From: Alphaproteobacteria bacterium
GTDB taxonomy: Bacteria > Pseudomonadota > Alphaproteobacteria > Bin95
Direction of reading: 5' to 3'
Length of the DNA stretch: 64,000 nt
Assembly (NCBI GenBank): GCA_964291285.2
Contig: OZ219785.1
Coordinates: 576,001 to 640,000, forward strand
Below, piece by piece: positions 3-63,975 of this stretch. The notes beneath the pieces are model-generated. The model was given only the letters and a program-made list of their open reading frames with translations, searched no databases and was not told where the DNA came from. The position numbers were made by a program, and so were the translations under genes. Position 1 is the first letter of the stretch, and the number at the start of each line of letters is the position of its first letter.

Positions 3-2774
3 GATACGCCGGGAGTGACGGTGTCGACGGCGGCGCTGACGGTGGCGGAAGGCGGCAGCAGGACGTACACGATGCGGCTGAACACGCCGCCGACATCGGA
101 TGTGACGATAACGGTGGGCGGCGCGTCGGGGGACGTGACGGTGACGGGTTCGCCGCTGACCTTCACCCGGACCGACTGGAACCAGCCGCAGACGGTGACG
201 GTGAACGCCGGCACGGACACGGACACGGTGACGGACGCCGACGTGACGCTGACGCACAGCGCGTCTGGCGGCGGTTACGCCTCGGTGAGCATTGCCGATG
301 TGGTGGTGCGCGTGGCGGAGAAGGATGCGGCGCCGTTGAAGCCGGCCGGCCTTGCCGCCGCGGCGGGCAACGCTTCGGCAACGCTGACCTGGACCGACCC
401 GGACAATCCGACCATCACGAAGTGGCAAGTCCGGCGGAAGGCCGGCAGCGGTGAGTGGGGCGAGTGGGAGGACATTCTTGGCTCCGGTGCGGGTACCACC
501 AGTCACGAGGTCAGCGGGCTGACCAACGGCACCGCCTACCAGTTCGAGGTGCGCGCGGTGAACGGGGCCGGCAACGGCGCCGGCCCGGATGCGCCGGTAA
601 CGGCGACGCCTGTGGCGCCGGCGGCTCCCGCGCCGCCGTCCGGCGGAGGCGGCGGCGGAGGCGGCGGCACGACCCCCGCCGCAGACGGAAGCGTGACGGT
701 GACGCCGACCGCGCTGAGGGTGTCGGAGGGCAGCAGTGCGGCCTACACGGTGGTGCTGGATACGGAACCCTCGGGCGATGTCACGGTGACGGTGGGCGGC
801 GCGTCGGGGGACGTGACGGTGGAACCGGCGAGCCTGACCTTCACGACCACCAACTGGGACACGGCGCAGACGGTGACGGTGCGCGCGGCCCGTGACGAGG
901 ACACGGTGGACGACACGGCGACGCTGACCCATGGTGCGAGCGGTGGCGGCTACGGTTCGGTGACCATCGATCCGGTGGCGGTGACAGTGACGGACACGAC
1001 GCTGTTGCCGGTGCTGACGCTGGCGCAGGACCCGGCGGCGGTGACCGAGGGCGACGACATCCGCCTCACGGTGACCGCCGACCGGGCATTGACGGGCAGC
1101 CTGACGGTCAGCCTGACGCTGTCGGCGCGCAATGCCAGCGGCTTCGATGCCGGTGACGTTCCGGGCGGTCCGGGGCCGCGTTCGTTCGATGCGGTATTCG
1201 GCGCCGCGGGGCGCACCACGGGGGTGGTGACGATCCCGACGGCGGCCGATGCGGATACGGAGGGGGCGGAAGCCTACCGCATCACGCTGAACGACGGTGC
1301 GGACTACGCGGTGGGGAGCGACGCGACGGCTGCGGGCGTGCTGCGCGACCGTGCGCCGGGGTCCGTTGCACGGTCGAACCGGGTGAATGCGGCGGTGCTG
1401 CCGCATGTGGCGGCGGCGGCGATGTCGCGGACGCTGGGGGCGGTGACGGGTCGGATCGAGGCGGCGGCGTCCGGCAGGCCGGGCAGTTCGCTGCGGTTCG
1501 GCGCCCTGCCGTCGTCGCCGGTCGGGTATGCCCGGGCCGCCCGGTCCGCGCCGCCGCGCCCTGAGGAGCCCGGCCCGACCCTGAGCGAGATACTGGACGG
1601 GGCGTCCTTCACGCTGGCGGCGGGCGCCGACGGCGAGGCGTCCCCGCCGCCGTTGGCGGTATGGGGCCGGGGCGAGTGGCTGTCGCTGTCGGGTTCGGAG
1701 AAGGATGTCGCCTGGGACGGCGGCCTGTGGTCGGCGCAGCTGGGGGCGGACCTGCGGGTGCGCCCGGACCTTCTGGCCGGGGCGGCGCTCTCCCATGCGC
1801 GGGGCGAACTGGACACGCGGACGACCGGCGCCGCCGGCGGCCGGGTGAAGGGCGTGCACGAGACGACGATCACGTCGGTGCATCCCTATGCGGCGTGGTT
1901 GCTGCCGGACGGCTCGACCCTGTGGGCGAGCCTCGGCTACGGGACCGGCGAGGTGCGGGTTGCCGAGGAGGGCGCGCCTTCGCGCAGTGCGGACCTGACG
2001 CAGTGGAGCGCGTCCGCGGGCGGGCGCAGCGTCCTGGTCGAGGATGCGGAGCTCATGGCGGGCGGGATGACGCGCCTTGCGGTGAAGGGCGAGGGTTCGG
2101 CGTCGCGCCTGCGCACGGGGTCCGATGACGGCCTGGCGGGGCTGACGGCGAGGACGACCCGTCTGCGGCTGCTGCTGGAGGGCTCGTACGAGCACGCGCT
2201 GGCGGGCGGTGCGACGCTGACGCCGGCGCTGGAGGCGGGGGTGCGCCATGACGGCGGCGACGTTGCCGAAGGGGCGGGCCTCGAGGCCGGGGCGGGCGTG
2301 ACCTGGCATGACCCGGCGGCGGGTCTGACGGCGGAGCTGCGCGCGCGGCTTCTGGCGGCGCACGAGGCGGACCGCGACGAATGGGGCGTGAGCGCGCTGG
2401 TGCGCCTCGACCCCGGGGCCGACGGGCGCGGGACGTTCCTCGCCTTCGGTCCCGCGCACGGGCGCACGGAGAGCGGCCTGGACCGGCTGTTCGACCACGG
2501 CCTGCCCGCGGCGGCGGACAGCACGGCGCCGGAAGGGGCGGAGAGCCGCCTGGAGGCGGAGGTGGGCCACGGGTTCGGCCTTGCCGGTCCGGGACCGCTG
2601 GCGGTGCTCACCCCCTGGGCCGGCCTCAGCCTGGCGGAGACGGGCGGGCGCACCCTGCGGCTCGGCGCGCGCTACCGCATGGGCGCGGGGCTCTCCCTCG
2701 GCCTCGAGGGCGCGCACCGGCCGGGCCCGGCCCCCGAAGACAGCCTCATGCTGCGCGGCGCGCTGCGATGGTAG
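3..2774 (+). CDS. Autotransporter-like surface protein, 5'-partial: Ig/Calx-beta-like repeats, an FN3 domain, a Pro/Gly linker and a C-terminal beta-barrel
   Basis: Frame is open from the window edge. Two copies of a VTV..LTV.EG....YT..L...P..DVT.TVGGASGDVTV...LTFT...W...QTVTV module; FN3 motif (LTWTDP...ITKWQ...VSGLTNGTAYQFEVRAVN); C-terminal barrel ending in the aromatic ...LRGALRW. Confidence 0.85.
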   Translation, partial: DTPGVTVSTAALTVAEGGSRTYTMRLNTPPTSDVTITVGGASGDVTVTGSPLTFTRTDWNQPQTVTVNAGTDTDTVTDADVTLTHSASGGGYASVSIADVVVRVAEKDAAPLKPAGLAAAAGNASATLTWTDPDNPTITKWQVRRKAGSGEWGEWEDILGSGAGTTSHEVSGLTNGTAYQFEVRAVNGAGNGAGPDAPVTATPVAPAAPAPPSGGGGGGGGGTTPAADGSVTVTPTALRVSEGSSAAYTVVLDTEPSGDVTVTVGGASGDVTVEPASLTFTTTNWDTAQTVTVRAARDEDTVDDTATLTHGASGGGYGSVTIDPVAVTVTDTTLLPVLTLAQDPAAVTEGDDIRLTVTADRALTGSLTVSLTLSARNASGFDAGDVPGGPGPRSFDAVFGAAGRTTGVVTIPTAADADTEGAEAYRITLNDGADYAVGSDATAAGVLRDRAPGSVARSNRVNAAVLPHVAAAAMSRTLGAVTGRIEAAASGRPGSSLRFGALPSSPVGYARAARSAPPRPEEPGPTLSEILDGASFTLAAGADGEASPPPLAVWGRGEWLSLSGSEKDVAWDGGLWSAQLGADLRVRPDLLAGAALSHARGELDTRTTGAAGGRVKGVHETTITSVHPYAAWLLPDGSTLWASLGYGTGEVRVAEEGAPSRSADLTQWSASAGGRSVLVEDAELMAGGMTRLAVKGEGSASRLRTGSDDGLAGLTARTTRLRLLLEGSYEHALAGGATLTPALEAGVRHDGGDVAEGAGLEAGAGVTWHDPAAGLTAELRARLLAAHEADRDEWGVSALVRLDPGADGRGTFLAFGPAHGRTESGLDRLFDHGLPAAADSTAPEGAESRLEAEVGHGFGLAGPGPLAVLTPWAGLSLAETGGRTLRLGARYRMGAGLSLGLEGAHRPGPAPEDSLMLRGALRW

Positions 2775-2805
2775 GAGAATGCAGGCCCGGCTCGGCTGAG
2801 GGCGT

Positions 2806-3330
2806 ATGGTGATTCATCTCACCGACATTTGGCCGATACGGGAGCCGGCTCTCTACAAGCTGCACTTCGCCCGCTGCAACCAGTCCAACCAACCGCTCGA
2901 CGTTTTCGTTCGCAGCCGGGAAGAATGGCAAGGCTGGCAGGAGCATCGACCGAAAAACAACGATTTCAACCGCCCGTATATCTTCTCGGTGATCGATTTC
3001 CATCGGGAGCCTGACATCTGGTTGTTCGGCGGTGTGTGGGAAGTCGTGGAGCGGCTGCCGGACAGATATGTCGTATCGCTGACCGAACAGGGCCGCGGCT
3101 TCATCGGACGCCTCAAACTGCATTCTCCCTGGCGCCAACGGGGAACCCGCGTGAATTTCGAGAAACGCCTGGACGAATTCACGGTAAGCGAAATTCTCAA
3201 GGAGGAGTATTCCGGGATCGATTTTCCGGGCCATGACCGGATCGACATCGGTTTCGGCGAGCTCGAATCGCTCATCTGCAACGACCGGCCCGATTGGCGC
3301 GGCGCCCTGGAGAACGCAAAGGGCGTTTAT
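2806..3330 (+). pseudogene. GIY-YIG nuclease family protein, truncated by an IS at the start of its nuclease domain
   Basis: N-terminus (YKLHFA...WQGWQ...W.FGGVW.V...IGRLK) resembles uncharacterised GIY-YIG proteins. Translation runs W..AL.N.KGVY and then enters the IS terminal repeat (PKSGS*). Confidence 0.7.
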
Positions 3331-5026
3331 CCTAAATCCGGCAGTTGACAGGCTTGATCGCTGTCTCGGGGTAGTGTGAACGGTCGGATTTGGGCGTGGA
3401 TTTCAGCACGCGGTCGCGGCCCTGGGTGGCGGCAGCCAGGGTTGACGCCCCGGTTCGCGGCCATGGAGGTATTTCCTGAGCGCCTCGGCGAGGATGCGGC
3501 GCCAGCGATCCCCGGCGCTCAACTGCTCCGCAGTTTGCGTCAGCGACCGGAAGAAGCCGGCGATCCGGCGCAGCGCCGCCATCACCGTCTTGCGACGCCC
3601 GTGATGGGAGGTCACCGTCAGCCGGGTCTGGCCGGCGTGGTGGGTCTGGCGGGCAACCCCGTGCAGGAGCAGCGGCCGGCTGGTGATCGCCTCGCGGTGA
3701 TGGTCGGGGTCGGCGAGGCGCACGAACAGGCTCCACCAGTTGTAGATGAGCGCGACCAGCCGGGCCATGTGCCGGCAGCGCGTCAGGTCGCGCGTGGTGA
3801 AGCCGCCCCAGCCCCACTGGTTCTTCAACTCGTTGAAGCCGTTCTCCGCGTCCGCCCGGTCGCGGTAGAGCTGGGCCAGCGAGCGTATCTCCAGGTCCAG
3901 CGAGGTCGCCAGCACCGCGAACTCCCATACCCCGGTGCCGGGCTGCGCCCCGGTCCAGAACAACTCGCCCCGGGCCTTGTCGCCACGCGTCAGCGCCAGC
4001 GTCGCAGGAAGCCGCCGGCGCAGCACCACAACCCGGCGCGTCCGGCTCCAGCCCTGCAGACGCAGATCGGCCCCGATCCCCGACCAGCCCTGGCCCGCAT
4101 CCTCCCAGCCGTCCCGCGCCATCAGACGCTCGGCAAGCCGGCGCGCCCCCTTCGTCAGGCGCAGCTTGAACAGATAGTCCGGACCCGCAGCCTCGCACGA
4201 CGCCATGTTGGCCTCGCTGCCCCAGTCCTTGTCGCCCCGCACCAGACGCGGCCAGCGATCCCGACCGAGACGGTCGAGCAACGCCCACAAGGACGGCGCC
4301 GCGCGCCTCGAATGGTGATGGTTGCCCGGCGCCACCTCGACATCAAGAACAAGCCGCGTCCCCGCCATCAGGAACGCATGGCAGGCATGCGAGGGGCGGC
4401 CCGGCTTCTTCGGGTTGTAGCTCACAACCGCCCCCTCCTGACGACCGTAAAGCGGCTTGATCGTCGTGTCGCAGTCCAGAACCCACGGCTCCCTCAGCAG
4501 CGGACGGACCACCTCGTCCAGATGGCCCTGAAGCCACGATGTGCCGGCCTCCGCACCGATCCGCTCCAGACCGCGCCGCACCGAATCCTCGCTCGCAACC
4601 TTGTCCATTCCCAACAGCGCAGGGTTCACTCCGTCGCCGCGCAACGACGTGATGTGCGCATACCGCGATTGCCCCGCCAGAACCGACAGCAGCACCGTAC
4701 CCAAGACATCCCGCTTCGACGGCGCGTTCGGGCTCGTGTACCGCAGCGGGCAGTCCGCAACCAAAGCGTCAAAGCGACCGCTCACCTTCAGGTATTTCGC
4801 GAAAAACGCCAGATGCCCCAGCGGCGTTACCGCCGCGTCCGGGTCCCATTCCACATGAACCGCGCCGCCGAAGGTGTCCACCTTCACCGACGCTCGGGCG
4901 ACATCCCGCACAGCGCCAGGATAATCACCCAAAGGGTGAGCCTCTTCGGCCCCTGAAAAGCCGCTCATACCCGCAGACTACAAGGGATTCGGCAAGGCCA
5001 AGCCATCCTCAACTGCCGGATTTAGG
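3331..5026 (-). mobile_element. IS1380-family insertion sequence (1696 bp)
   Basis: Perfect 18-bp terminal inverted repeats cctaaatccggcagttga (3331-3348) and tcaactgccggatttagg (5009-5026), enclosing a single DDE transposase. Confidence 0.88.
3403..4968 (-). CDS. IS1380-family DDE transposase (exact start uncertain)
   Basis: Motifs LDCDTTIKPLYGRQEGA, LVRGDKDWG and YRDRADAENGFNELK. Confidence 0.85.
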   Translation of the reverse strand: MSGFSGAEEAHPLGDYPGAVRDVARASVKVDTFGGAVHVEWDPDAAVTPLGHLAFFAKYLKVSGRFDALVADCPLRYTSPNAPSKRDVLGTVLLSVLAGQSRYAHITSLRGDGVNPALLGMDKVASEDSVRRGLERIGAEAGTSWLQGHLDEVVRPLLREPWVLDCDTTIKPLYGRQEGAVVSYNPKKPGRPSHACHAFLMAGTRLVLDVEVAPGNHHHSRRAAPSLWALLDRLGRDRWPRLVRGDKDWGSEANMASCEAAGPDYLFKLRLTKGARRLAERLMARDGWEDAGQGWSGIGADLRLQGWSRTRRVVVLRRRLPATLALTRGDKARGELFWTGAQPGTGVWEFAVLATSLDLEIRSLAQLYRDRADAENGFNELKNQWGWGGFTTRDLTRCRHMARLVALIYNWWSLFVRLADPDHHREAITSRPLLLHGVARQTHHAGQTRLTVTSHHGRRKTVMAALRRIAGFFRSLTQTAEQLSAGDRWRRILAEALRKYLHGREPGRQPWLPPPRAATAC

Positions 5027-19371: not shown

Positions 19372-19911
19372 TTACCGGTTTTTCGCGTGATAGGATTCAG
19401 CTTTATCAGACATTCGCTGGCCTGAATCGGGATTACGGGTGCGGAGGCGGGCAGCGGAACGATTGCGGATTGCGTCGGCTATGGGCCCCAGCCGGGCCGG
19501 ACCGGAAAATGCGCCTTCGTCGAGCATCCTGCTCACCCGGTCGGCATCCGTTGCCGCAAGAAACGTGAATATCTTGGGAATCGCGCCCGTACGGGAAACG
19601 GACTTGCCCGGATCGACGCCATAGACGCGGCAGAATTCCCGAATGTCTGCAACGCTGGGGAGAAAGCTCTTGTCTTCGAAATGCCGGGCGGCGCGTTCCA
19701 ATATCTGGGCCTTGTCCGGAGGAAGGAGCATCCTGCCCACATAGTCGATTGCGGACGGTTTGCTCCTTGCGCTGCCTGCGCGCTTCGCCGGCGAAGATGG
19801 AACGGCCGAATCCGATGCCACTTGCAGGTCGGCGAGACCGTGCAATACCGAACTCATGCCGTGGCGGCGGACCAGTGTCTGCAAGGTTTCCGTCAGGTCA
19901 TGTCGCGGCAT
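19372..19911 (-). CDS. Hypothetical protein translationally coupled to the orphan ParA
   Basis: TAATG stop/start overlap at 19911; same lower-GC composition as the ParA gene. Confidence 0.7.
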   Translation of the reverse strand: MPRHDLTETLQTLVRRHGMSSVLHGLADLQVASDSAVPSSPAKRAGSARSKPSAIDYVGRMLLPPDKAQILERAARHFEDKSFLPSVADIREFCRVYGVDPGKSVSRTGAIPKIFTFLAATDADRVSRMLDEGAFSGPARLGPIADAIRNRSAARLRTRNPDSGQRMSDKAESYHAKNR

Positions 19912-20759
19912 TAGTCTCCTCCCAAGCCGACGCGGTTAAGGAATTCATCAGCAAATAGAAAGAAACGCCATGCATTTCCGCCGTGGCTCAAATCGCCGCG
20001 CATGCGCTTCGGGAAGCCACGCGAATGGGGAATTTCCTCCTCAAAGATATGCCAGCCATGCTTGTCCGCCTCCTCGTGTATCTCCAGCATCGCTCGGCGT
20101 TTTTCAGGGCCCCCATCGTTACCCCCGTGATAGAAACCGTTATTGATGACGACGCCGATGACCTCAATGCGGTGCGAGGGGTTTTCAACCCTGAATGAAT
20201 TGAGCGACTTCGCAAGCAGAGGAAACCCAATAGTCGCAAAATATTCGGGCCGTACCGGCACCAGCACATACCGGGACGCATGATACGCCGCGCGCGTGAA
20301 CACGGACTCGGTCGGCGGGCAGTCGATCAGCACAAGGTCCCTGTCCTGGAAATTGTCCGCAATATAGCGCGCAAGCACCTGCGGATCGGGTTTGGCCGCC
20401 CGCACGAGATTGTCGGAGAAGTCGAAGCGGGACGGTATGTAGGAAAGCGTTCCGTCAGGATACACCTCCCGAACGGCTTCAAGGGGATTGAGCCGAGTGG
20501 GAGACTCATTGTTCCGGGTTGGAGGCCGGTAACCGTCGAACACCTCTACGATGGACGGTTCCTCACTATCGATAAATCGCTTATATGCCTCACGCATATA
20601 GGCTTGGCTCAGGTTCGCTTGCGGGTCCAGATCGACGGCAAGCACACGAAGATCTTCGTAGGCGGCATACCGTCCCAACAGCGCAACGACGGTCGTCTTG
20701 CCGACACCGCCTTTCATATTGATAACCGATATACAAACAGGCCCGCGTTCGCTCGGCAT
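19911..20759 (-). CDS. Orphan ParA/Soj-family ATPase
   Basis: Deviant Walker A NMKGGVGKTT, VDLDPQANLS and LIDCPPT. Confidence 0.88.
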   Translation of the reverse strand: MPSERGPVCISVINMKGGVGKTTVVALLGRYAAYEDLRVLAVDLDPQANLSQAYMREAYKRFIDSEEPSIVEVFDGYRPPTRNNESPTRLNPLEAVREVYPDGTLSYIPSRFDFSDNLVRAAKPDPQVLARYIADNFQDRDLVLIDCPPTESVFTRAAYHASRYVLVPVRPEYFATIGFPLLAKSLNSFRVENPSHRIEVIGVVINNGFYHGGNDGGPEKRRAMLEIHEEADKHGWHIFEEEIPHSRGFPKRMRGDLSHGGNAWRFFLFADEFLNRVGLGGD

Positions 20760-20878
20760 AGACGGCTTCCCACTAGAGCGATGCATCGACCATAGTACTC
20801 AGGCAATATGGCGTCAACAAAACTGGCGGTTTGCGGCACGAAGTGCGAACTGGGCGGACAAACTCTGCGTTGGCCCGG

Positions 20879-58902: not shown

Positions 58903-59505
58903 ATGCGGGAAGCGGAAGAGGGTGAAATCGGGCGCGACCCGGTGCGCGCCGTCCGGCGCTGGATCGAGGAGGCCGAGGCCTGCGAGCCGGTGGACGCCAA
59001 TGCCGCCGCGCTCGCCACGGTGGGCGCGGACGGCATGCCGTCCTGCCGGATCGTGCTGGTGAAGGCGGTCGAGCCGGAGGGGCTCGTCTTCTACACCAAC
59101 TATGAAAGCCGGAAGAGCCGCGAGCTCGCCGCCCGGCCGCTCGCGGCGCTGACCTTCCACTGGCGCGTGCTCGACCGGCAATTGCGGGTCGAGGGGCGGG
59201 TCTCGCGGGTCGAGGACGCGGTCTCCGACGCCTATTTCGCAAGCCGCGACCGGGGAAGCCGGATCGGCGCCTGGGCGTCCCGCCAGTCGGAGCCGGTCGC
59301 CGGCCGCGCGGCGCTCGAGGCGCGCGTGGCGGAGATGGAGGCGCGGTTCGGCCAGGCCGACATTCCCAGGCCGGTCTTCTGGGGCGGGTTCCGGCTCCGG
59401 CCCTCGCGCATCGAGTTCTGGCGCCGGGGCGAGCACCGCCTGCACGACCGCATTGCCTGCCGCGCCGAAGGGGAGGCGTGGACGAGGGAGAGGCTCCAGC
59501 CATAG
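58903..59505 (+). CDS. pdxH: Pyridoxamine 5'-phosphate oxidase
   Basis: FYTNYESRK, RQ.RVEG, SRIGAWASRQS, WGGFR, EFW...HRLHDR, RLQP. Confidence 0.95.
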   Translation: MREAEEGEIGRDPVRAVRRWIEEAEACEPVDANAAALATVGADGMPSCRIVLVKAVEPEGLVFYTNYESRKSRELAARPLAALTFHWRVLDRQLRVEGRVSRVEDAVSDAYFASRDRGSRIGAWASRQSEPVAGRAALEARVAEMEARFGQADIPRPVFWGGFRLRPSRIEFWRRGEHRLHDRIACRAEGEAWTRERLQP

Positions 59506-59875
59506 TTCCCGGCGCGGGCCGGATCGCTGCCGTCCGATGCTCTCCGCCCCGATATGTCGGCGAAACGACGCCCATCAAATAGAATATTTTTTCTCTCTAT
59601 GGACATGTTCCAGGCATTATGTTCTGATTATGCCCATGGTCATGCCTCCACCAGTCCCTCATGCCGCTTCGATACGCGCCTTTGGCACGGCCAATTTCCC
59701 GATCCGATCTCCTGTCCGGCGTCCTTCTTCCGACATCGTCGGCGCCCCGCCTCGCAGGTTGCCGTGTCCTCCGGGTGATCGCGCCCCGGCGCGCACCTCG
59801 TCCTGCGGCCCTTTGCCGGCGTTCCTGCCGCCCGCGACCTCCGGCGATCCTCCGCCGGACCGACAGTGATCCGCA

Positions 59876-60160
59876 ATGGAAACCCCGATTTTGTCATTTC
59901 TTTCAAAGCTCGGGCCGTTGAAGCATCAACTGCTCTTGTACTCCCTCGTCGGCTGCATTGTGCTTCTGTACGCCGCGCACCGTTCCGATGAATGGCACGG
60001 ACTCATTTTGAATATCGGCGCTATATTGGTGCTTTTGTGCGGTTCTGCCTTTTGGCTCCTCGCCTATCTGAAGCTGCCAAACAACGCGCAGGAAAAAGCG
60101 TTTCTGAGCAGCACTGCCACCATGGTCCTGCACGACAGAGCTGAACGAGCCAGTCCATGA
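59876..60160 (+). CDS. Small 2-TM hypothetical protein
   Basis: Two hydrophobic segments; ATGA overlap with the next gene. Confidence 0.55.
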   Translation: METPILSFLSKLGPLKHQLLLYSLVGCIVLLYAAHRSDEWHGLILNIGAILVLLCGSAFWLLAYLKLPNNAQEKAFLSSTATMVLHDRAERASP

Positions 60161-61959
60161 CACCCCCTTCCGCGAATGCACCCACCATCCTCGCGATTTT
60201 AAGCGGAAAGGGAGGCGTCGGGAAAACCATGCTGGCCGCCGCCACTGCCTATGAGCTTTCTCGCGTCCAGCCTACACTAATTCTTGACCTCGACTTCTTC
60301 AATCGTGGTCTCTCCGGCTTGCTTCTCAACAATAGACTTGGAGACGAAGTCTCACCGCCGCTCTTCTTTGTCGACGACTCCGCCGCGCCATGGACGGTTT
60401 CGAAAGTAACCACCAATATTTACACCGTCTCGTTCCCCGATATACCCGACGCCATTTCTTCCCGCCTCTCTTCCATTTCCGTTAATTCTCTCGCTACCCA
60501 GCTCCACGATTGGATACTTGAGATAACACGTGCCACAGGCTGTCGTGCTGTCGTCTTAGACTGTCATGGTGGTCCGGATGCTCTTTCCTTTGCTGCCGCG
60601 ACAATCGCAAATAAATCTTTGCTGGTTTCGGAGCCAGATCGAATCACGATGTACGGAACACTTCACTTTTTACGAAAAATTTCAGAACTTTCCATTGATA
60701 TTACCAATGTTCATCTGGTGCTTAATAAAGTCATAGACTCATTCACGTCCAGATTTCTGTTAAATACCTATGATACTCATCTAAAGGATCGTTTCTGTGG
60801 CAAGCCTCTATTGGCTTTGTTTCCGTTGGAGGGGTACCTTACAAAGCATTTTGAGCATAGACCATTTGTTACGGCGGATTTTCCAGAATCAATACTGGCG
60901 CGCAAAACTCAAATAATGCTGGCTAACCTTCTGGCTAAAGATACATCAGAGCTTGTACCTGAGCGAGCACGGAATATGTATCAGCCAATAGCCTTCTTTT
61001 GGAAATTCTATATGGGGAGAACACCTAAAGTACTGCAGGTAGACTTTGCCATGATAGCAGGGTTTTTGGTTCTTTTGTTGCTTATTGCTGCGGAGATAGC
61101 TGCGAAGTTTGTGGGTATAGACGACGGCAGAAATGCGATATTATTGCCGATGGCAGCGAGCGTCCCTATTTGGGCATTATTCACTGGGCTATTATCTTGG
61201 ACTAAGCAGTTAGACCAGAAGATGACTCTGTTTTCAAGAAGGGGATATCGGATCTATTTTTTATGTTGTGCTGCAGGAATTTTTCTTATGTGGACGGCAC
61301 CTATAGAATTGGCGGCGTATGTGATTGCAAATATAGAGCCGTTAGATGAAGTGTTCAAGCCAATGAAGTATCTTTGGTATGTAATGTTCGTGGTCATGTT
61401 ATTTATCTGGGGAAGGCAGGTGTTTCGTGCCGAGGAGGACACCAAATATTCCTATCGCCAGATGGAACCGACAATTAGATTTGTGCTGGCATTGATTATC
61501 TTGGCCGGTGCGGCGAATGTTACTGTAGATCGGGGATTCCTCACAGATATGCTACTGAAGGATGGCAGCTATCGGAAATATGGATTTATCACATTGACAA
61601 AGAAGGAGGTTGAGGAGGGGGCGAAGAAGGCGGCGGAGTTGCAGATAGATGCCCCGTCCGTTTTCGGGAGGGTGGAAGATGGGACCAAATGGTACACGAT
61701 GAATATCGGGGAGGAGAAGAGGTACCTAATAGCCGTGAAGGCGGAGTTTGGGGACCCCCGGGTGGGATTATTTGGAGCGGACGAGGCCGATTATGAGTAT
61801 ATCGCACAAGATGACGATGGAGGAGTGCGTTTCGATTCGCGGCTTGAGGAGCAGTTGAAGGCGGGGACCTATTACGTAGGTGTTCGGGGGTTTCTTGGAC
61901 AGCCGGTTCGGTACTGGATAGGTATCGTCGGCGGATTGAGGGCGGTAACGGAGCAGTAG
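60157..61959 (+). CDS. ParA/MinD-family ATPase fused to a multi-TM region and a C-terminal PPC-like domain
   Basis: SGKGGVGKT, LDLD, VLDCHGG, VLNK; about 5 TM segments; DP...LF......IAQDDDGG..FDSRL...L.AGTYYV.V. Confidence 0.82.
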   Translation: MTPPSANAPTILAILSGKGGVGKTMLAAATAYELSRVQPTLILDLDFFNRGLSGLLLNNRLGDEVSPPLFFVDDSAAPWTVSKVTTNIYTVSFPDIPDAISSRLSSISVNSLATQLHDWILEITRATGCRAVVLDCHGGPDALSFAAATIANKSLLVSEPDRITMYGTLHFLRKISELSIDITNVHLVLNKVIDSFTSRFLLNTYDTHLKDRFCGKPLLALFPLEGYLTKHFEHRPFVTADFPESILARKTQIMLANLLAKDTSELVPERARNMYQPIAFFWKFYMGRTPKVLQVDFAMIAGFLVLLLLIAAEIAAKFVGIDDGRNAILLPMAASVPIWALFTGLLSWTKQLDQKMTLFSRRGYRIYFLCCAAGIFLMWTAPIELAAYVIANIEPLDEVFKPMKYLWYVMFVVMLFIWGRQVFRAEEDTKYSYRQMEPTIRFVLALIILAGAANVTVDRGFLTDMLLKDGSYRKYGFITLTKKEVEEGAKKAAELQIDAPSVFGRVEDGTKWYTMNIGEEKRYLIAVKAEFGDPRVGLFGADEADYEYIAQDDDGGVRFDSRLEEQLKAGTYYVGVRGFLGQPVRYWIGIVGGLRAVTEQ

Positions 61960-62198
61960 AACGATGTGGAATGTGAAGGGCGCGCTGCAGGAGGGCGTTA
62001 GGGGCCGTCCATAGAGCGACAGTTCGGGTCGTTGCTGCGAGGGGTGCCGGCGGTATAGTTTTGACCAGGTGGGGGCGCAGCGTTGGCTAGGGTAGAATTA
62101 CGGCGGCCCCTGGCGGCAAAGTAAGCGGAAGTCGGAGTGCATCGGGCAAACTTCGGCGGGTGCATGTTCCGGCATCTTCGCGATTGGGAGGTGCCTTA

Positions 62199-63050
62199 GG
62201 CAGAATCGACATTCATCGCATCCAGAGGATAGCAGAAGCGATGTGTATGAAGGCGAGGAAGTATATTGCTTTTCGGTCGTATCGGGTTGCGATGCGGCGG
62301 AAGTGTTTGATCTTGTTGAAGTAGCGCTCGATGCGGTTTCGGTGTTTGTAGATTTCGGCGTCATAGCCGATGAGACGCTTTCGCGTTGGATTGCAGGGGA
62401 TGACGGCCTCGGCCTCGATGTCGGCGATGCGGTTGCGGATGGCATTGGCGTCGTAAGCAGCGTCGGCGAGCACATGGCGGGGCCGAAACCCCTCCATCAA
62501 CGCCAGGGCCTTTGGCGCGTCGCCGGCCTGTCCGGGCGAGAGGATCACGCGGAGCGGTCGTCCGAGAGTGTCGCAGGCGATGTGTATTTTGGTCGTCAGT
62601 CCGCCTCTGGAACGCCCCAGAGCCTGATCCCGGCCCCCCCTTTTCCGGTCGCCGCCTGTTGATGCGCGCGCACGATGGTGCTGTCGAGCATGAGATAGCC
62701 ATTGTCGCGATCCGCCGTCAGGGTATCGAACACCCTCTCCCACACGCCCACTTTGGCCCAGCGTGTGAAACGCTTGTGCACCGACTTCCACTTCCCATAG
62801 CGCGGCGGCAGGTCGTGCCAGTGGGCGCCCGAACGAAGCACCCACAGAACCGCGTTGACGAACAACCGGTTGTCTGCTCCCGAACGCCCCGGATCGCCCG
62901 GCTTGCCCAGAAGCAGACCTTCGATGCGGACCCACTGCGCATCCGTCAGCTCATAGCGCTTCACCATACGCCCAACTCCAACCGAAAATCAGTTGGAGCG
63001 TCATGAATCACATAATGTCTTCCCAGGGAATCCTGTATGTCGATTGAACC
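62199..63050 (-). mobile_element. IS5-family (IS427-like) element, 852 bp, with TA duplication
   Basis: IRs ggcagaatcgacat / atgtcgattgaacc; TA at 62197-62198 and 63051-63052. Confidence 0.85.
62213..62967 (-). CDS. IS5-family transposase (two ORFs joined by a -1 frameshift)
   Basis: OrfA: YELTDAQW...GAHWHDLP.RYG.W...LDSTIVRAHQ. OrfB: LGRSRGGLTTKIH...AD.AYD...Y..RN.IER.F..IK.FRRIATRYD. Slippery AAAAGGGGGGG at 62634-62644. Confidence 0.9.
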
Positions 63051-63144
63051 TAGGGCAGTTCGGTGCGAAAGAAGACGCCGCCTGCACGACCGCATCGTCT
63101 GCCGCGCCGAAGGGGGCGTGGACAAGAGAGAGGCTCCAGCCAAG

Positions 63145-63975
63145 ATGATCCGGGATGATCTCGACCATTACCGCGACAACGGCTTCATCCATCCCAGGCC
63201 CCTTCTGGCGCCTGCCGAGGCCGCCCGCTACCGCAAGGCGTGCGAGGCCTCCTGCGTCGAAGCCGGACGAAAGCCCTCCCGGCGCCAGCAGGACAACCGC
63301 GTCAAGCCCTACCTGCTGTTTCCCTGGGCGGCAGAGCTCGTGCGCCATCCGGGGCTGCTGGACATGGTGGAGGCGCTCATCGGCCCCGACATCCTGGTGT
63401 TCCACACCACGGTCTGGATCAAGGAAGGCGGCAGCGGGTCCTTCGTGCCCTGGCACCAGGACGGCACCTATTTCGGCCTTGAGCCGCTGGAGCAGGTGAC
63501 CGCCTGGGTGGCGCTGACCGAATCGACCAGGGAGATGGGGTGCCTCCGCTTCCTGCCGGGCTCCCACCGCGAGGGCCAGGTGCAGCACCGCGACCGTGAC
63601 GACGAGGCGCTCATGCTGTCGCGCGGCCAGACCGTCCAGCGCGCCGTGGACGAGGACAGCGCCGTCCATCTGGAGTTCGCGCCGGGCGAGGTTTCCTTCC
63701 ACCACACGATGGCCATGCACAGCTCCGGCCCCAACCGCTCGGCCCGGCGGCGCATCGGCATCGGCATCAGCTACATACCGGCCCATGTCCGCCATGTAAC
63801 GCCCGTTCGGCTCTCGGCTTCCCTGGTGCGCGGCCGGGACCGCTACGGCCATTTCGACCCGGAGCCGCGCCCCGAGCGGGACGGCGGGACGGCTGCCGAA
63901 GCCGTCCATGCCGACAGCCTCGACCGCTTCTGGCGCGCCTCGGAATACATCCCGGAGATGCAGGGCATCCACTGA
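63145..63975 (+). CDS. Phytanoyl-CoA dioxygenase (PhyH) family Fe(II)/2-oxoglutarate oxygenase
   Basis: WHQD..YF, GCL.F.PGSH, H.S.PN.S..RR.G. Confidence 0.9.
   Translation: MIRDDLDHYRDNGFIHPRPLLAPAEAARYRKACEASCVEAGRKPSRRQQDNRVKPYLLFPWAAELVRHPGLLDMVEALIGPDILVFHTTVWIKEGGSGSFVPWHQDGTYFGLEPLEQVTAWVALTESTREMGCLRFLPGSHREGQVQHRDRDDEALMLSRGQTVQRAVDEDSAVHLEFAPGEVSFHHTMAMHSSGPNRSARRRIGIGISYIPAHVRHVTPVRLSASLVRGRDRYGHFDPEPRPERDGGTAAEAVHADSLDRFWRASEYIPEMQGIH

Follow-up and report, generated by a model that had tools for sequence, protein, structure and literature searches.

A low-GC two-gene cassette from an alphaproteobacterial genome pairs a MinD-like ATPase, fused to five membrane helices and a predicted PPC ectodomain, with a small two-helix membrane protein: a probable conflict module of the PCTM type

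In a preprint of 22 Oct 2026, Li, Burroughs & Aravind (bioRxiv 10.64898/2026.10.19.760177) predicted the PCTM system (ParA with a C-terminal transmembrane (TM) domain), whose layout, as set out in the main text, comprises a cytoplasmic ParA, a C-terminal TM domain and often an extracellular domain of pentapeptide repeats, TPR or SPOR-like type. The upstream gene is described there as encoding SLATT, "a putative 2TM effector", a caspase or CPPC-4h, and on the authors' proposal a perturbation of the membrane or periplasm is sensed, whereupon the ParA switch turns the effector on. The same main text describes a receptor-like subtype of TIR-ParA, with an N-terminal ParA, a single-pass anchor, a peptidoglycan-binding ectodomain and an upstream TIR gene, and names as marks of the ConB2 assemblage an Arg that replaces the Walker A Lys and a PG behind the DxD (10.64898/2026.10.19.760177). 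Here we describe a two-gene cassette from a 64,000-nucleotide stretch (hereafter the window) of contig OZ219785.1, assembly GCA_964291285.2, from an alphaproteobacterium. The cassette encodes a protein of 94 amino acids (aa) with two TM segments and a 600-aa protein in which a ParA/MinD-type ATPase is followed by five TM helices and a C-terminal beta-sandwich. Judged from its sequence features, the cassette is probably a two-gene membrane-embedded conflict module of the PCTM type, directed against phages or mobile elements, and an immune function of the pair appears likely.

Both genes are on the forward strand, the small open reading frame (ORF) at 59876-60160 and the large ORF at 60157-61959, and the end of the first shares the four bases ATGA with the start of the second. 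The whole two-gene version takes up ~2.1 kb, with a GC content of 0.485-0.489 (60001-62000) against ~0.68-0.73 on either side. The initial annotation, made from the letters of the window alone, had given these coordinates, the overlap and the low GC content, and all of them stand. Both frames are intact in the window and in a locus of a related alphaproteobacterial metagenome-assembled genome (L001), the closest relative, against which the large gene has a ratio of nonsynonymous to synonymous divergence (dN/dS) of 0.11 and the small gene one of 0.34. Because there are 800 homologues, the pair recurs in three other loci and dN/dS is low, the two ORFs are not chance frames, and these comparisons indicate an intact gene pair on which purifying selection is acting. 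The cassette is almost identical across three sequencing runs of the same organism label. In run X4, a sponge metagenome, contigs of ~3-5x depth cover parts of 59625-62087 at ~95% identity, and a close cassette variant is therefore present in another sample type. A separate protein record of 223 aa (P0121) is 100% identical to residues 378-600 of the large protein and is probably a truncated gene call. The promoter scan returned 5 sites where 2.6 +/- 2.0 were expected, all of them on the minus strand and with no convincing promoter on the plus strand, and the terminator scan gave no plus-strand signal exceeding chance.

The ATPase domain covers residues 1-270 of the large protein (60157-60966, plus strand). 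Its Walker A motif SGKGGVGKT occupies residues 16-24 (60202-60228, plus strand), the motif DLDFFNRG, whose DLD at residues 44-46 is read as the switch, occupies residues 44-51 on the same strand, and the Walker B motif DCHGG occupies residues 135-139 (60559-60573, plus strand). In 45 aligned homologues the residues S16, K18, K23, T24, D44, D46 and D135, the last followed by CHGGPD, are invariant. The deviant-Walker-A signature of MinD and ParA is complete, with the signature Lys (xKGGxxK[ST]), the DxD switch and the Walker B Asp, and the switch region (DLDFFNRGLSGL) is without a PG. Sequence models recognise the domain weakly: CbiA (2.5e-5), ArsA (8.2e-6), minD_arch (1.1e-6) and AAA_KGGVGR (7.1e-6), from Pfam and NCBIfam, all match far under their curated cut-offs, and ParA is also among the weak matches. 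In a Foldseek comparison of the AlphaFold2 (AF2) model the best match was Aquifex aeolicus MinD (4v02; target template-modelling score 0.67-0.71), with Chlorobium ParA (3ea0) and FlhG (4rz3) next. A single-sequence search of solved structures gave P-loop matches only at the N-terminus and nothing significant at the C-terminus, and the ESM Atlas held no usable match for the large protein.

Several more specific identities were considered for this protein and rejected. The BcsQ model TIGR03371 scored 21.6 bits where its cut-off is 157.85, minD_bact scored 20.2 bits where the cut-off is 212.9, and ParA_partition scored 19.5 where the cut-off is 180, so neither BcsQ, nor MinD, nor a partition ParA is an acceptable name. 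A BY-kinase-like arrangement was also set aside, as BY-kinases have the opposite domain order. The protein is present in a single copy in its genome. The remaining ParA-class proteins encoded there, partition ParAs and ApbC, resemble it in the P-loop alone, at the 1e-6 level.

Behind the ATPase, residues ~288-460 (61018-61536, plus strand) form a TM region of five helices, as delimited by hydropathy, loop charges and the AF2 model. The hydropathy segments lie at about 288-310, 325-347, 364-391, 403-421 and 438-460, and the corresponding helices of the AF2 model (12-row alignment; predicted local distance difference test, pLDDT, 80.1; predicted template-modelling score, pTM, 0.67) at 295-319, 325-361, 365-393, 398-431 and 436-466. 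The loop charges obey the positive-inside rule and are consistent with a topology in which the N-terminus is inside and the C-terminus outside. Residues 493-592 (61633-61932, plus strand) fold into a beta-sandwich, which includes the acidic cluster DDDGG at residues 552-556 and which, when modelled alone with AF2, reached a pLDDT of 87.3. Foldseek relates it to the collagen-binding domain of ColG, which binds Ca2+ (1nqj, 1nqd and 2o8o; target template-modelling score 0.72-0.83), and to the pre-peptidase C-terminal (PPC) domain of a Bacillus collagenase (5sv5; 0.73). The Pfam PPC model PF04151 has no match at E <= 1 on the window copy, the NCBIfam model FDP_fam reaches 17.5 bits where the cut-off is 29, and the window domain aligns with PF04151-annotated repeats of three homologues (P0002-P0004). 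On the modelled fold and these homologues, and not on the Pfam model, the ectodomain is a PPC domain. It is predicted to lie outside the cytoplasm because the number of TM helices is odd, the loop charges agree and the ATPase is cytoplasmic, and by analogy with ColG the domain is likely to bind Ca2+ or be stabilised by it, because an acidic cluster and a ColG-like fold occur together. The proposal of the initial annotation that there are about five TM helices and an extracytoplasmic PPC-like domain has thus been borne out, with the location outside being a prediction from topology.

The fusion, which the initial annotation called unusual, is not unique. A HMMER pass over 1.84 billion cluster representatives (50% identity) found the large-protein family in 800 representatives at E <= 1e-3, of which 123 were at E <= 1e-30, and the same fusion is present in other genomes. 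Among the members with a complete ATPase, at least four TM segments are predicted behind it in 148 of 177. Every motif named by the earlier reading, KGGVGKT, DLDF.N.G, DCHGG and DDDGG, is present at its mapped residues; DCHGG, which had been called atypical, is there as described and is a family-wide signature, found exactly in 183 of 217 retrieved proteins, and is not peculiar to the window protein. Lys stands at the second position of the Walker A motif in all 189 recognisable motifs and Arg in none of them. What follows the membrane region is far more variable. Most members stop right past the fifth TM helix, some have an insert of ~150 aa behind the first, and a tail of at least 100 aa is present in 13 of the 177, six of which have a DDDGG-type cluster. 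The number of PPC copies among relatives ranges from one to four (four in P0002), distant relatives with three TM segments carry pentapeptide repeats (P0201, P0209, P0211, P0216 and P0217) or a chagasin-like domain (P0135), and large proteins of secreted type such as P0173 hold PPC arrays. The alignments therefore indicate that the ectodomain is swapped among relatives, which have one to four PPC domains, pentapeptide repeats, a chagasin-like domain, an insert after the first TM helix or no ectodomain at all. Pipelines of the Joint Genome Institute (JGI) label many of the homologues "cellulose biosynthesis protein BcsQ".

The 94-aa partner has two TM segments by inspection, of which a threshold hydropathy scan flagged the second only (residues 40-68). 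No family in Pfam, NCBIfam or PADLOC reaches its cut-off on this protein, the ESM Atlas gave only leads below 0.9 (archaeal hypothetical proteins and TraQ), and a search for longer fused forms in the range of 446-2000 aa found none. A SLATT identity was rejected, as SLATT is not among the Pfam matches of the small protein at E <= 1. In all four of the loci open to reading (the window, L001, L052 of genome G468, and L004), the ATPase gene is immediately preceded by a 2-TM gene, which overlaps it or ends within 8 nt of it, and the four partner proteins align with one another; the coupled upstream 2-TM gene noticed at the outset, with its ATGA overlap, thus has a counterpart in each of these loci. 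When the small protein was modelled in complex with the ATPase protein (residues 1-470), the median score was 0.28, where the mark is 0.32, and we count this neither for nor against a contact.

Relatives of the pair carry recognisable effector domains. In L004, a 2-kb metagenome contig, the partner has a TIR_2 domain (1.1e-26) fused ahead of its 2-TM tail, and another relative (P0183) has an N-terminal SIR2_2 domain (Pfam 2e-17; LmuA/ThsA 4e-10). In P0188 the order is an endonuclease of the Cap4 type known from cyclic-oligonucleotide-based anti-phage signalling systems (CBASS; PADLOC PDLC00744, 7.3e-68), then a 2-TM module, then the ATPase. By these domain matches the family is tied to three classic abortive-infection effector domains: TIR, SIR2 and nuclease. 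In P0174, P0177 and P0188 two predicted TM helices precede the ATPase on one chain, with a likeness to the small partner that was judged by eye, and such same-chain fusions hint at a physical coupling of the two modules. Because the fusions are N-terminal, both ends of the 2-TM module would be cytoplasmic, and the same orientation is predicted for the small protein, which is a predicted effector or adaptor. In L052 (G468, contig C10, 4595-9773) the pair itself sits in a low-GC islet (0.29-0.40 against 0.50-0.55) beside a HigB/HigA-like pair, made up of Gp49/HigB-like and HI1420-type antidote genes, and DUF433 and DUF2442 genes. The same stretch also has three small genes whose hydrophobic N-terminal stretches resemble signal peptides and which match no family.

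The family is rare, scattered and patchy. No member was found in 400 other genomes of the class of the window's organism; a phylum-wide sample of 400 other genomes yielded one (G468), which was also the only one of the 56 genomes sampled in its own class. A scan of the genome collection with the single protein returned one true relative, L001, and one match in the P-loop only, L002. When metagenomes were scanned with a generic GKGGVGKT pattern, one of 45 confirmed loci (L004) held a family member, the others matching in the P-loop region only, at 23-62% identity.

The site at which the cassette lies bears the marks of an insertion. The insertion target was pdxH (58903-59505, plus strand; pyridoxamine 5'-phosphate oxidase, with Pfam PNPOx_N at 9.9e-27 and PNP_phzG_C at 4.5e-16), whose last ~70 nt (59436-59505, plus strand) form the left copy of a direct repeat of family D1. 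The right copy of the pdxH 3' end (63078-63145, plus strand) forms the right islet edge and is the original junction to PhyH, a gene whose start is at 63145; 59436-59490 and 63078-63132 are 82% identical, and the right copy is 92% identical to the pdxH end of L001. The leader or intergenic part of the islet (59506-59875, plus strand) lies upstream of the small gene, and homology with the syntenic L001 ends within it, at 59552. A genome of the same genus (G312; L053, 1006-2912) has the empty site, where pdxH runs straight into PhyH, the stop codon of the one and the start codon of the other overlapping in ATGA. Because the pdxH end is duplicated and this empty site exists, we conclude that ~3.6 kb was inserted at the pdxH 3' end. 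A duplicated end of this kind is what site-specific integration at the end of a gene leaves behind, and the comparison indicates horizontal acquisition of the cassette as a low-GC islet. The ORFs and repeats of the islet include no integrase, no ParB, no repeats of centromere-like type and no further genes of an element.

Also within the islet is an insertion sequence (IS) of the IS5 family (62192-63057, 866 bp, minus strand), with two overlapping transposase frames (Pfam DUF4096 1.2e-27, DDE_Tnp_1 3.5e-18) and 24-nt inverted repeats at 62192-62215 and 63034-63057. Its read depth is ~10x that of the flanks. The element is missing from contigs of runs X2 and X3, which have the same organism label and in which 62196 joins 63051; it is for this reason taken to be a later, strain-specific passenger outside the system. 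In L001 (5720-7794) both cassette genes occupy the equivalent site without that IS. An IS5-family element of its own lies in L001 at 2643-3403, between the ammonium-transporter side and the DnaJ-like gene, where the window has none.

The comparison with L001 further separates the cassette from its surroundings. Flanking proteins are 89-92% identical between the two, the large protein 64% and the small protein 56%, and within the large protein identity falls outwards, from 73% in the ATPase to 58.5% in the TM region and 53.7% in the ectodomain. Synonymous divergence (dS) is saturated in the cassette (1.1-2.4), whereas pdxH and the DnaJ-like, lipoprotein and PhyH genes have values of 0.21-0.40; GC at third codon positions (GC3) of the cassette differs between the two genomes, being 0.52 vs 0.61 and 0.63 vs 0.79. 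Because its dS is far above that of the flanks, the cassette has a history of its own, and the high value may reflect allele replacement at a hotspot or the amelioration of AT-rich DNA in a GC-rich genome.

In the mechanism that we propose for the conflict module, the 600-aa protein would be the sensor-switch and the 94-aa protein, to which it is translationally coupled, the output. The periplasm-facing PPC domain would report a ligand or a disturbance of the envelope, the five-helix bundle would relay the signal across the membrane, and the MinD-like ATPase would respond by ATP-dependent dimerisation or multimerisation; MinD-class proteins dimerise or multimerise on ATP. The 2-TM protein could be a membrane-permeabilising effector itself, or a membrane adaptor that in other family members would carry an enzymatic killer domain such as TIR. 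Ligand sensing, the contact between the two proteins, the switching of the ATPase and the defence outcome are the steps that we infer. A more far-reaching version, which we hold only tentatively, is that the DCHGG proteins form a distinct Lys-type lineage of "outside-in" immune receptors with a fast-diverging ectodomain, a MinD-like switch and a released 2-TM pore-former. Such receptors would notice a phage or an envelope breach in the periplasm, no later than the moment at which the genome enters, by means of a swappable ectodomain: a Ca2+-dependent PPC module in the window protein, and two to four PPC copies, pentapeptide repeats or a chagasin-like domain in others. The cytoplasmic tail of the pore-former might work on the ATPase dimer in the manner of MinE or ParB peptides, and the versions with TIR, SIR2 or nuclease domains would have been elaborated from this minimal core. 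To our knowledge, almost all characterised bacterial immune sensors act intracellularly.

A number of observations weigh against an immune reading of the cassette. The window copy has no recognisable enzymatic effector in Pfam, PADLOC and NCBIfam scans, and in PADLOC-DB 2.0 the pair matches only PDC-M28B, at 1.4e-4 and over P-loop residues 7-59 of the large protein, with nothing for the small one. Effector fusions are rare among the relatives (two of 25 variant proteins scanned with Pfam and PADLOC, and one of four neighbourhoods), and the neighbourhood evidence has a narrow basis, four gene neighbourhoods having been inspected in all. Partner relatives number four: the protein's own record, the L001 and L052 partners, which the query alignment had included from the start, and P0222, the sole newcomer. 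The defence-island analysis that had been suggested was negative, in that the cassette is flanked by pdxH, PhyH, an ammonium transporter and a DnaJ-like gene and no defence genes flank it in the window or in L001, neither of which is a defence island. No member was found in 72,556 plasmid records or in 50,697 phage records, and the 14 places at which a back-translated DCHGGPD pattern occurs in viral contigs encode no member (hmmsearch E < 1e-5, 1219 ORFs). The window protein has Lys in its Walker A motif (KGGVGKT) and no PG behind the DxD, in contrast to the ConB2 marks, as the preprint's main text gives them; these marks belong to the assemblage as a whole and every clade in it may not show them. 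Finally, the PCTM prediction to which we compare the pair is, by the main text of its preprint, purely computational (10.64898/2026.10.19.760177).

An alternative is a housekeeping or niche-specific function at the envelope, in which the MinD/ParA-like ATPase would position or regulate a surface structure or a secretion complex and the PPC domain would bind an extracellular polymer. BcsQ, FlhG and MinD position or regulate surface structures or secretion complexes, the closest folds are of the MinD, FlhG and BcsQ type, many homologues bear the JGI name BcsQ, PPC domains are typical of secreted polymer-binding enzymes, and no defence genes stand beside the cassette in the window or L001. We nevertheless regard this explanation as unlikely. 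The BcsQ and MinD models score far under their cut-offs, no biosynthetic or secretion genes accompany the pair, the two-gene islet is absent from the same-genus genome and very patchy, and the TIR, SIR2 and nuclease domains of relatives are ill-suited to positioning. We likewise give a low probability to the idea that the cassette works for a mobile element instead of its host, whether as a device for addiction or exclusion or as a partition ATPase left over from an integrative element, since decayed, whose target was the pdxH 3' end. This idea would account for the duplicated end of the target gene, such as integrative elements leave, for the low GC content, for the toxin-antitoxin pair that adjoins the L052 copy and for a cassette dS of 1.1-2.4 beside flanks of 0.21-0.40, and ParA-type ATPases are common on mobile elements. 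However, the islet is without an integrase, ParB or centromere-like repeats, no plasmid or phage relatives were found in the records searched, a five-TM bundle with an outside domain serves no role in DNA partition, and the true partition ParAs of the genome match the protein in the P-loop only.

A one-component environmental sensor without an immune role, in which an external ligand or Ca2+ would act through the PPC domain on ATPase dimerisation to give a physiological response, shares its anatomy with the proposed immune module and would suit a window copy that lacks an enzymatic effector. We consider it improbable, as the protein has no DNA-binding or signalling output domain, the distribution is that of an accessory, horizontally moved pair and there are relatives with effector-domain fusions. 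The smallness of the islet and the adjoining IS might suggest a decaying, non-functional remnant of foreign DNA, yet the frames are intact here and in L001, dN/dS is 0.11 and 0.34, the catalytic residues are all conserved and the cassette is nearly constant in the three runs of the same organism label, so that this explanation carries hardly any weight. A conflict module therefore remains the reading that we favour. The initial annotation had guessed at a transmembrane sensor coupled to ATPase dimerisation or a membrane-acting defence system; the anatomy, the invariant ATPase residues and the relatives with TIR, SIR2 or nuclease domains fit that guess, the part of it that has to be given up being that the architecture was undescribed. 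If the reading is true, a receptor that links an outward binding domain to a MinD-type ATP switch would detect attack in a manner unlike that of intracellular sensors. At ~2.1 kb and with no enzymatic effector, the cassette would be close to the smallest testable form of the recently predicted PCTM class. For such work the relatives offer natural ectodomain swaps and variants with TIR, SIR2 or nuclease domains, and L001 offers, at the corresponding chromosomal position, an allele of 64% identity. Should the pair prove inactive against phages and plasmids, it would serve as a useful caution on guilt-by-association predictions for ParA-based systems.

Among described systems, the nearest in layout is PCTM, and we assign the cassette to this kind as a member whose ectodomain is new. 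It shares with the system, as laid out in the preprint's main text, all four elements of the architecture: a ParA, a TM domain, an outside binding domain and an upstream 2-TM gene. The original statement that no characterised protein has this architecture has accordingly lost most of its force, though PCTM itself is only predicted, and no ParA-TM-PPC protein was found in the literature searched. The differences concern the parts. The window ectodomain is a PPC domain, a word that occurs 0 times in the main text of the preprint; there are five TM helices where the main text stresses the single-pass type; and the partner is a bare 2-TM protein, likened to the preprint's "2TM effector" by description alone and not by sequence. 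The TIR, SIR2 and Cap4-type nuclease partners of relatives are not among the effectors named in the main text. In a tree of 50 ParA domains (quick IQ-TREE, without the preprint's reference sequences), the window protein and the TM-bearing forms, including those with pentapeptide repeats, an ectodomain type that the main text lists for PCTM, make up one clade with an SH-like approximate likelihood-ratio test (SH-aLRT) value of 96. A ParA-like gene elsewhere in the window (19911-20798, minus strand; RepA/ParA matches of partition type, below cut-off) has a very long branch (3.68) in this tree and disturbs the fork between the KGGVGR proteins and the TM-bearing forms.

With the receptor-like TIR-ParA subtype, as the main text of the preprint portrays it, the cassette shares a cytoplasmic ParA, a membrane anchor and a variable extracellular sensor, and the L004 member even has an upstream TIR gene. 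However, the window partner is without a TIR domain (Pfam), and the L004 partner has its TIR and the 2-TM module on one chain. The likeness to MinD, FlhG and ParA lies in the fold (Foldseek target template-modelling score 0.63-0.77 for MinD, FlhG, Soj and SegA) and in the signature Lys, the Walker A and B motifs and the DxD switch. A Ser before the Walker A motif and the lack of a Gln behind the DxD also recall the MinD-side branch termed "PriB2" in the preprint's main text. In contrast to MinD, which has an amphipathic helix, the window ATPase is anchored by a fused five-helix bundle, and it has no MinC/MinE or ParB partner and model scores far below the MinD and ParA cut-offs.

The nearest ParA lineage of immune type is that of the KGGVGR AAA ATPases (NF047398), which appear as the sister group in the tree: the TM-bearing clade joins them apart from MinD (SH-aLRT 90), though the fork is a three-way split with a long-branch chromosomal ParA. 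On the NF047398 model the window protein scores 26.5 bits and its relatives up to 52 bits over the 190 positions, the cut-off being 90. The window family differs in having Lys where the KGGVGR proteins have Arg, and no C-terminal TM bundle was found in 20 KGGVGR loci. These loci (L071-L090, from the class of G468) encode proteins of ~430-830 aa with an N-terminal extension of 130-230 aa and no TM bundle. NF047398 proteins above the cut-off occur in 42 of 301 genomes sampled, nearly all in one small class and often in 2-5 copies, with none in the genome G000. The ectodomain, for its part, resembles PPC and collagen-binding domains (PF04151, ColG s3b) in its beta-sandwich, its conserved acidic cluster and the tandem repeats of relatives, and differs from them in being joined to a membrane ATPase and not to a protease. 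Relative to all of these systems, the novelty lies in a PPC domain as ectodomain, in the DCHGG lineage of Lys type, in a minimal partner of two TM helices and in the variants with TIR, SIR2 and nuclease domains.

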